UHGV virus genome: UHGV-0117053
Direction: 5' to 3' (one strand)
DNA from: a virus
Length of the DNA: 64,000 nucleotides
Shown here: positions 39,669 to 40,478 of the stretch, in pieces
Layout of the letters: each line of letters begins with the position of its first letter
How positions within the stretch are numbered: the stretch's first letter is position 1
Made by a program: the position numbers and the translations under genes
Notes under the pieces: generated by a model
The model's input: only the letters and a program-made list of their open reading frames with translations
The model's database searches: none
Told to the model about the DNA's origin: nothing

Positions 39669-40478
39669 ATGCAAGAAGAGAAACAACACTACCTCTACGT
39701 TCTGGTGCCAGAGAACGGAGATACTTTTAAAATCGGCATTTCATGTGGTCCATTGGCACGGTTTAAAGGGCTACAAGTGAGTCCCGATTTTGCGCTTTCA
39801 CGGGTCTATCGTGGTACGCGTTTGGCAATGGTTAATCTTGAGCGGGCTTTACACGCAACCTTTTTCCCCTGGAATGCGCCGTGGGAGAAAAGCGCCGGTG
39901 GCGGGCATACTGAATGGTTTACACGAGAGTGTCTTGATAAGGTTTTGGCTCATATCGAATATCTAAATGATATGTGGGGAGGGATTCTCGAGCGCATTAA
40001 GTCGAATGATTTACTTCAGCGTCCAGTAGATGCTGCTTGCTCTTTCGAAAAAGAGCTGGATGTTACTTCTATCGTGACTTTCAAAGATGACGCAGGAATG
40101 AGGGACGTGGCTTATGTCTCCATATCTGGCTATGAACCGGACGCGATCCGCGCTCAATGTGAATTGCTGAAAGCAATGTTTATGCTTCGGACTAAATATC
40201 CCTGGGATACAGGGCGGGTGTGCTTCCCTATGGAAGAGTTAACCGCCACCATTGATTCCCAGCTTTACCACGATAATCCAGAGAAGTTTTTTAGCCTTTT
40301 AGCCGGTAATGGGCTTAACTGTGTGTCCGGGCTGGGGCGAAGTAGAATCCAACATGCCTCGCTCTTCGGTCCCTTCTTTTACGATCGACACGGGTACTTT
40401 GAGGCTGAACTTCCGGCGCTTACGCGTGCTATAGATACTATCGATTTCGAACGATTATTCGCTGCTCTTAGCAAATAA
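39669..40478 (+). CDS. T5orf172 (GIY-YIG-like) domain protein, 269 aa
   Basis: N-terminus YLYVLVPENGDTFKIGIS...RFKGLQ...NLERALHATFFPW...GGGHTEWF fits the T5orf172 signature; C-terminal 170 aa unrecognised. Confidence 0.7.
   Translation: MQEEKQHYLYVLVPENGDTFKIGISCGPLARFKGLQVSPDFALSRVYRGTRLAMVNLERALHATFFPWNAPWEKSAGGGHTEWFTRECLDKVLAHIEYLNDMWGGILERIKSNDLLQRPVDAACSFEKELDVTSIVTFKDDAGMRDVAYVSISGYEPDAIRAQCELLKAMFMLRTKYPWDTGRVCFPMEELTATIDSQLYHDNPEKFFSLLAGNGLNCVSGLGRSRIQHASLFGPFFYDRHGYFEAELPALTRAIDTIDFERLFAALSK

Follow-up and report, generated by a model that had tools for sequence, protein, structure and literature searches.

A T5orf172-domain gene at the edge of an exchangeable replicon cassette in a P1-like phage-plasmid, tentatively read as a homing-endonuclease-like competition nuclease

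Between the replication gene repA and the partition gene parA of a P1-like (Punavirus) phage-plasmid, the 64,000-nucleotide stretch of the virus genome UHGV-0117053 (the window) carries a plus-strand open reading frame (ORF; 39669–40478) with an ATG start, whose 269-residue product has an N-terminal T5orf172 domain of the GIY-YIG superfamily. We tentatively interpret the ORF, with a confidence that stops a little short of even, as a gene for a homing-endonuclease-like competition nuclease, a dispensable and semi-selfish passenger at the right edge of an exchangeable replicon cassette. What points to this interpretation is the combination of the shared domain and its Arg/Glu pair, a layout in two modules, a place at the boundary of an exchanged block, presence in some relatives but not in others, and the degeneration of individual copies. 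P1-like phage-plasmids are common and are increasingly recognized as carriers of extended-spectrum beta-lactamase and other resistance genes. Their two replicon types, IncY and p0111, switch often on otherwise similar backbones, and to our knowledge no explanation for this has been offered by anyone; a nuclease gene at the cassette edge of one type could offer a concrete mechanism by which co-infecting elements compete and cassettes are replaced.

The ORF exists exactly as described in an earlier reading of the stretch from its letters alone (the sequence-only reading), which had assigned the first ~100 residues to T5orf172, and the profile and structural data bear out this assignment. The whole protein matched Pfam T5orf172 (PF10544) over residues 8–85 (model positions 2–87 of 101; E = 4.7e-6, 27.5 bits) and residues 1–111 alone matched it with E = 6e-7 and 30.3 bits, both above the gathering cut-off of 20 bits. 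Across 13 homologues, down to 22% identity, residues Y10, K21-x-G23, R31, E58, H62 and E82-W-F are invariant. R31 and E82, the latter within a TEWF motif, are the presumed catalytic arginine and metal-binding glutamate, matched by motif position rather than by superposition; the reference catalytic residues are R27 and E75 in I-TevI and E180 in Odn. The N-domain of the predicted structure has the GIY-YIG alpha/beta fold, and its comparison with viral models by Foldseek returned T5orf172 proteins at a probability of 1.0, the matches including ICP1 ORF88 (which we take to be ICP1 Gp88, that is, Odn), CapR-homology proteins and a Hef-like homing endonuclease. When the 13-sequence family alignment was used for a sequence-profile search of the PDB, only chance matches, and no PDB GIY-YIG protein, were retrieved.

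The gene forms the right-hand end of a replicon block that sets the window apart from classical P1 (NC_005856). While positions 34001–38294 and 40545–45000 are 97.4% and 99.3% identical to P1, respectively, the 2250 bp between 38295 and 40544 have a single, weak P1 match of 59 nt. This block is the known, published IncY-to-p0111 replicon swap, and is also found in the pO111 plasmid NC_013370. The sequence-only reading had described classical P1 as lacking a gene at this place, correctly, as only a spacer of about 170–190 bp lies there between incA and Ppar; it had also pictured a cassette inserted between the incA iterons and parA, and in this it must be revised, since the whole replicon block differs from P1. 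A simple insertion into P1 is ruled out by the non-P1 nature of the entire 2250 bp and the 42% identity of the two RepA proteins. Interpretation of the P1 spacer as a deletion scar of the gene was likewise rejected, as the alignment scores fell in the shuffle range; loss of the gene and its never having been acquired are both compatible with this result.

Three very divergent homologues occupy the same slot, in the order repA, control iterons, nuclease gene, parA, parB and gene 23, in diverged P1-like elements. They lie beside a p0111-like RepA in locus L003 (84% identical to the window RepA), a P1-like RepA in L004 (83% identical to P1 RepA) and a third RepA type in L005, and in each locus their ATG codons start ~20–35 nt after the last inverted iteron, which in the window ends 30 nt 5' of the ORF ATG. 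L003 and L004 have flanks that are 96–99% identical and differ by exactly the block of iterons, repA, iterons and nuclease gene; L004 and L140 differ by the same block between flanks that are 98–99% identical. Together with the window and P1, this makes three independent swaps that end at the outer edge of the gene, all with the same boundaries. The association of flanking single-nucleotide polymorphisms with cassette type drops to the background level over a distance of ~100 bp from the left edge and <50 bp from the right edge, and 17 replicon-type switches have been inferred in Salmonella P1-like elements (PMC11165635); the rapid decay of linkage and these switches indicate that cassette exchange is frequent. 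In L140 the block (3477–4866) lacks the nuclease gene; it has iterons of its own and encodes yet another, fourth type of RepA that shares 49% identity with P1 RepA. The IncY and p0111 replicons usually cited are thus not the only types among P1-like elements.

A single conserved intergenic site is thus polymorphic for the gene, which is present in the window and the other p0111-type elements, L003, L004 and L005, and absent from 39 IncY-type loci, from L140 and from L139, where the RepA is of the L004 type. Such presence/absence at a conserved intergenic slot is what is found for a free-standing homing endonuclease gene (HEG). The layout of the protein matches free-standing GIY-YIG HEGs as well, with a catalytic domain of ~100 residues, a linker of low confidence in the model and a separate domain that diverges faster: the N-domains of the window and L003 proteins are 61% identical vs. 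33% for the C-domains, and those of L004 and L005 58% vs. 28%. Agreement between the nuclease tree and the RepA tree is only partial. Strict co-divergence with RepA was rejected because L004 and L005, with N-domains 58% identical, have RepAs that are 41% identical, and the closer relation of the nucleases fits some independent mobility.

In a ParA-anchored survey of 160 loci, the gene was found in all 41 p0111-type loci and in none of the 39 of IncY type, the latter comprising 23 with P1-type ParA and 16 with a 58%-identical ParA type that is presumably P7-like. The sequence-only reading had left room for the gene being present at this junction in all P1 relatives, and the synteny of these loci shows that it is not. 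Among PLSDB records the ORF was detected in 401 plasmids, always at ≥90% identity, and the p0111-type repA (repA') in 396 at ≥90%, with 391 records covering ≥80% of the module; the linkage of the ORF to p0111-type repA is therefore ~1:1. Complete E. coli genomes carry the gene in 412 of 5426 cases (about 7–8%) and the IncY repA–incA block in 359. Elsewhere, counts of p0111 vs. IncY are 24 vs. 31 in RefSeq P1-like plasmids and 132 vs. 94 in Salmonella. Seven of the 421 genomic places of the gene in the complete E. coli genomes are chromosomal rather than plasmid-borne, which suggests integrated P1-like elements or cointegrates. A 231-kb plasmid, NZ_AP027538.1, has kept only the last ~85 codons of the gene.

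The gene is under real but weak constraint. Within the p0111 clade the ratio of nonsynonymous to synonymous polymorphism (pN/pS) is 0.33 (0.27 for the N-domain and 0.39 for the C-domain), compared with 0.019 for repA, 0.002 for parA, 0.056 for parB and 0.15 for upfA. At least four independent knock-outs account for the seven disrupted copies among the 41: S112 is replaced by TAG in four loci (L087, L093, L114 and L126; codon 112, TCG at 40002–40004), one of them on a 97,897-bp contig, and the remaining knock-outs are W68 to TAG, Q228 to TAA (on a 103,445-bp contig) and, in L117, an insertion that by eye we judge to be an IS200/IS605-type insertion sequence. That insertion (L117, 2783–4545) spans 1.76 kb, contains TnpA(Y1)-like and TnpB-like ORFs and has cost the gene ~230 bp. 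The S112 stop truncates the protein in the inter-domain linker, leaving a 111-residue nuclease domain and an overlapping ORF of 168 residues from M102 that is called separately (cluster P0003), so that this allele may represent either a pseudogene or a form split into two chains. Clusters of the truncated alleles hold 205 and 229 (P0003) member sequences, and that of the full-length protein 1241. The broken copies show that the gene, though real and constrained, is dispensable. An essential component would be universal and intact wherever the replicon is maintained, which this gene is not, and its absence from classical P1 and the broken p0111-type copies likewise speak against the maintenance effector that the sequence-only reading had listed among its options. 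Cumulatively, the pN/pS values and the recurrent knock-outs constitute a signature of a HEG-like life cycle.

The C-terminal part of the protein, which the sequence-only reading had found unlike anything it recognized, is indeed an orphan by sequence. Residues 112–269 matched no Pfam family at E ≤ 10, and the same was true for all four family members, and an exhaustive HMMER scan of 1.84 billion (1.84e9) representatives turned up the C-domain in no protein other than P0004 (44% identity) and some fragments; about 70 further proteins matched residues ~5–115 only. Two more distant proteins, P0010 from Salmonella (27% identical) and P0011 from a faecal metagenome (25%), are collinear over the full length, with marginal homology in their C-terminal parts (hhalign probability 50%, E 1.7e-4). 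A PDB sequence-profile search with the C-domain gave chance matches only, and neither Rep_3, RepA_N nor any other Pfam Rep family matched. The structural model was built from a 4-sequence alignment (pLDDT 73.6, with a low-confidence linker at residues 115–127), an earlier one from two sequences (pLDDT 54) having been too poor for use. Its top PDB matches by Foldseek were RctB, Rep WH1 and RepE54, at E values from 3e-3 to 0.5 and probabilities of ≤0.97; the resemblance to Rep WH1 folds is weak but recurrent, lies in the twilight zone and came from the search with no aligned ranges. We assign these matches to the C-domain because several of the alignments (116–152 columns) are longer than the N-domain, because the N-domain is already explained by its GIY-YIG matches, and because residues 183–232 of the model show a winged-helix-like order of elements. 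On this basis we regard the chances of a Rep-like (WH1) fold in the predicted C-domain as roughly even. A recent chimera with the element's own RepA, as in Odn, was rejected at the sequence level, since hhalign against a 7-member RepA profile gave a probability of 0.2%.

The closest known systems are the phage T5orf172 HEGs of the ICP1 gp53/gp121/gp130 class. In ICP1-like, T5-like and other phages, T5orf172 proteins make up the principal HEG family, encoded next to essential genes and at the borders of blocks that undergo exchange (Barth, Dunham and Seed 2023, PMC10448857). The ORF shares with them the Pfam domain, a matching predicted fold, a stand-alone intergenic position beside essential genes at the edge of a block exchanged between related genomes, presence/absence polymorphism, the modular combination of a nuclease with a fast-evolving second domain, and frequent inactivated alleles. 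Unlike them, it has its nuclease domain at the N-terminus and a second domain that is a sequence orphan without a CapR, DUF723 or DUF4397 zinc finger, resides in a temperate phage-plasmid where the flanked block is a plasmid-maintenance replicon rather than lytic genes, and across hundreds of genomes keeps a stable link to a single repA type. The GIY-YIG HEGs of the T4 Seg and I-TevI type resemble the ORF in having an N-terminal catalytic domain of ~100 residues, a linker and a C-terminal targeting domain, in their free-standing intergenic location and in their logic of marker exclusion or co-conversion. The ORF differs from these in belonging to another GIY-YIG subfamily, with KIG in place of the second Tyr motif; their DNA-binding modules are of the NUMOD, zinc-finger and helix-turn-helix kinds, and none of these is among the Pfam matches of the ORF.

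Considering these likenesses, we propose a mechanism in which the N-terminal domain, with R31 and E82, would cut DNA and the fast-evolving C-terminal domain beyond the flexible linker would pick the target. Transcription started at the autoregulated repA promoter would probably read through the control iterons and supply nuclease at a low level while the replicon is active, and a co-resident relative without the gene, for instance an IncY-type P1, would be cut in or near the rep–par junction or the iteron region. The break would then either destroy the rival or be repaired from the nuclease-carrying element and, since the two replicon cassettes are non-homologous, repair would copy the entire cassette, including the nuclease gene, between the flanking homologies (the left part of oriR and Ppar), giving the nuclease a causal part in cassette exchange. 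A more specific version, to which we give only minor weight, makes the protein a Rep-mimicking nuclease whose winged-helix C-domain would recognize the iterons of a rival, or its RepA–iteron complex, and whose T5orf172 domain would cut there, eliminating rivals and driving cassette replacement. If true, such an incompatibility weapon would explain the frequent IncY/p0111 switching in Enterobacteriaceae, and a genuine Rep-like targeting domain would extend the Odn principle from the conflict of lytic phage and satellite to that of plasmid versus plasmid.

Several observations weigh against the homing-endonuclease-like interpretation. Cleavage, a target site and homing are, for this protein and its close relatives, putative. 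The CapR, DUF723 and DUF4397 zinc-finger modules, which occur in 87% of phage T5orf172 HEGs and are typical of them without being strictly defining (PMC10448857), had no Pfam match in residues 112–269 of any of the four family members, nor was a CxxC motif seen on inspection of the translation. The replicon types with and without the nuclease are about equally common, with no sign of a sweeping drive, and within the common p0111 clade the gene and repA' are always inherited together, none of the 39 IncY cassettes having acquired the gene alone. Local alignment of the P1 incA–Ppar spacer with all four homologous loci gave scores within the shuffle range, and revealed neither a relic of the gene nor a recognizable site. 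Finally, ordinary homologous recombination flanking any stretch of non-homology would leave fixed swap edges and a fast loss of linkage, whether or not a nuclease took part.

Among the alternatives, exclusion of rival plasmids without homing, by an origin-directed nuclease comparable to Odn, has a modest chance of being right. Odn is a T5orf172 nuclease with a RepA-like domain that cuts the iteron-bearing origin of its rival and is inactivated by E180A (PMC8263062), and further T5orf172 fusions to RepA_N have evolved independently (PMC10448857). Like Odn (ICP1 Gp88), the ORF combines a T5orf172 nuclease with a domain that, in its case by predicted fold, may resemble the winged helix of an initiator; ICP1 ORF88 is among the structural matches of its N-domain, and variants of both track replicon types. 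The C-domain would in this case be a WH1-type Rep mimic that binds the iterons of the rival or docks on its RepA. However, the DNA-binding domain of Odn is 42% identical to its model, the PLE RepA_N, and precedes the nuclease, whereas in the ORF the order is reversed and the possible resemblance is to Rep_3-type WH1, not to RepA_N. The sequence homology to an initiator DNA-binding domain that characterizes Odn was found neither in the hhalign comparison with the elements' own RepA nor in the Pfam Rep families, and the fold matches are of the twilight-zone kind described above, their placement in the C-domain of a four-sequence model being indirect. In addition, the window and L003 have near-identical iterons and RepAs that are 84% identical, yet C-domains of 33% identity, which argues against recognition of the element's own iterons. 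The ORF lies in a replicon cassette, while Odn belongs to a lytic phage that targets a satellite.

It is unlikely, on present evidence, that the gene is a decaying relic of a homing or competition nuclease which became fixed in the p0111 cassette, now hitch-hikes with repA' and has little or no function today. The disrupted copies from at least four independent events, the pN/pS 6–165 times that of repA, parA and parB, and the size of the truncated-allele clusters are all in keeping with it, but pN/pS is well under 1 in both domains, 34 of the 41 copies are intact, and the catalytic residues and two-domain layout are kept in same-slot homologues that have diverged to 15–40% identity, which requires long-term selection that is at least episodic. 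Very little weight attaches to an anti-phage defense or superinfection-exclusion effector attacking unrelated incoming phage DNA and protecting the lysogen, as the sequence-only reading had suggested. A nuclease-type domain on a prophage-plasmid, a fast-evolving C-terminal domain, population genetics typical of an accessory gene and the use of T5orf172 domains in conflicts between elements (Odn, CapR) would suit such a role; against it, none of the 5027 models of PADLOC-DB 2.0 matched at E ≤ 1 and no NCBIfam match was found, the gene stands single, without partner genes, its distribution tracks replicon type rather than host or ecology, and it lies in the replicon cassette, not in the variable or defense regions listed for P1-like elements (PMC9603915). 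The HEG and Odn comparators fit better than defense does, and are close in spirit to the anti-plasmid option of the same reading. We hold it to be just as improbable that the protein is a domesticated regulator, binding DNA close to the iterons or Ppar without cutting it and adjusting copy number, incompatibility or the expression of par. Such domestication has a precedent in PLE CapR, a T5orf172-related repressor, and the gene does sit between the copy-control iterons and the par operator/promoter, where it is probably co-expressed with repA; but neither the catalytic Arg and Glu nor the other residues of the GIY-YIG motifs vary, classical P1 and the 39 IncY-type loci manage without such a gene, natural nonsense alleles persist in maintained plasmids, and constraint is far weaker than on repA, parA and parB.

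The features of the region are listed in the following table. The gene order around the ORF is upfB, ppfA, upfA, repA, [ORF], parA, parB and gene 23, and the closest DNA matches of the window, at 98.7–99.6% identity, are phi456, several 'P1' isolates, SJ46, JL22 and RCS47.

Table 1. Coordinates of the nuclease gene, the replicon cassette and adjacent features in the window
Feature	Coordinates	Strand	Basis and remarks
Exchangeable replicon cassette, p0111 type	38295..40544	+	Origin iterons, repA', control iterons, nuclease gene and terminator; replaces P1 incC-repA-incA and spacer
Five origin iterons, core TTGACTATACGCGA, 21-22 bp spacing	38308..38415	+	Repeat search; position equivalent to P1 incC
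repA'	38492..39376	+	294 aa, Rep_3/RepB-type initiator, p0111 type; 42% identical to P1 RepA (tblastn); same gene annotated in RCS47
Control (incA-like) iterons	39375..39638	.	Two direct copies 39375-39421, four inverted 39496-39638, a degenerate one 39527-39540
Nuclease gene, N-terminal T5orf172 (GIY-YIG superfamily) domain, residues 1-110	39669..39998	+	Pfam, predicted fold
Nuclease gene, low-confidence linker (~residues 115-127) and orphan C-terminal domain (~128-269)	39999..40478	+	Predicted alpha/beta, winged-helix-like core, possibly Rep WH1-like
Intrinsic terminator-like hairpin and T-run	40486..40510	+	GCCCCTGAACGGGGC then TTTTTTG; closes the repA'-nuclease unit
Ppar promoter	40564..40592	+	Consensus scan TGTACA-17-TATTAT; aligns to annotated P1 Ppar (L001 6017-6045); just right of the cassette edge
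parA	40647..41843	+	398 aa, 99.7% identical to P1 ParA; first gene of the right-hand conserved backbone

As to expression, neither sigma-70-like promoters nor terminators were predicted in the interval between repA' and the ORF, which makes read-through from the repA promoter the simplest model, and we consider that the ORF is probably transcribed in this way. No promoter of its own was predicted upstream of the gene in the window or in L004, and no motif there is common to the four cassettes. Of the signals named in the sequence-only reading, the terminator is present as a hairpin with a T-run, which likewise trails the L005 homologue, while the gene's own ribosome-binding site holds only in part: a Shine–Dalgarno-like GTGG does lie 8–11 nt 5' of the ATG, but it is a poor match. 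The origin iterons have 0–1 mismatches to the core in a pattern search, and matches elsewhere are at the chance level of three mismatches, of which ~25 would be expected by chance in the window. The coding sequence of repA' holds a one-mismatch iteron copy, TTGACTATAAGCGA, at 39096–39109 that is conserved in the 84%-identical repA of L003 (7610–7630), and it may be an internal RepA-binding site. Between the terminator of the ORF and the right edge of the cassette there is a degenerate inverted iteron-like 14-mer with three mismatches (40529–40542), and a comparable remnant lies 3' of the L004 gene (7916–7936) and none in L003. Location of the gene inside an iteron array was considered and is not relied upon, the 14-mer being at chance level and absent in L003.

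More distant relatives of the N-domain, of 292–302 residues and with unrelated C-termini, were found on other plasmids (L166 5001–5879 and L167 5001–5909), one beside TrbM, relaxase, MobC and UmuDC-like genes, another close to an integrase and partition genes of the ParA/SopB type, a hint of a plasmid association for the N-domain clade at large. A general tie of the clade to rep genes was rejected, as none of three distant N-domain homologues, two of them on plasmids, lies beside a rep gene. Large plasmids of Pantoea, Erwinia and Kosakonia (L012–L058, e.g. L014 3150–4980) encode a ParA 77–79% identical to that of P1 downstream of a RepFIB-like RepA (46%). An equivalent of the nuclease gene was sought in the Pantoea/Erwinia plasmids with P1-like ParA and rejected, the repA–parA gap of 1.3–2.2 kb containing no ORF of >80 residues, and the gap in these three genera is presumably a long non-coding control region.

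Part of this is already known, in that the cassette swap is published and the ORF carries a GIY-YIG or T5orf172 label in RefSeq and GenBank ('GIY-YIG nuclease family protein' in the former, 'T5orf172 domain-containing protein' in one record of the latter). In the searchable literature we found nothing on its function, on a family survey or family-wide synteny across RepA types, on repeated cassette swaps that end at the gene or its population-genetic signature, or on the orphan, possibly Rep-like C-domain and the link to HEGs and Odn. The product is a full-length member of phrog_2876, a family without known function, and appears in published descriptions of P1-like phage-plasmids as an unknown protein (PMC9603915). 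The same protein, 98–100% identical and in the same position, is JL22 gp57, RCS47 gp090 and a hypothetical protein of SJ46, and repA' is named RepB family or RepFIB RepA in the PLSDB records at ≥90% identity. In the 'P1' isolate records MH422554, MH445380 and MH445381 the gene is present and left unannotated. In phi456 (OR339795.1, 39982–40788) a 100%-identical gene is labelled 'terminase small subunit', almost certainly a misannotation; given this record, consistent annotation is wanted, and even if inert the gene would still be a useful marker.

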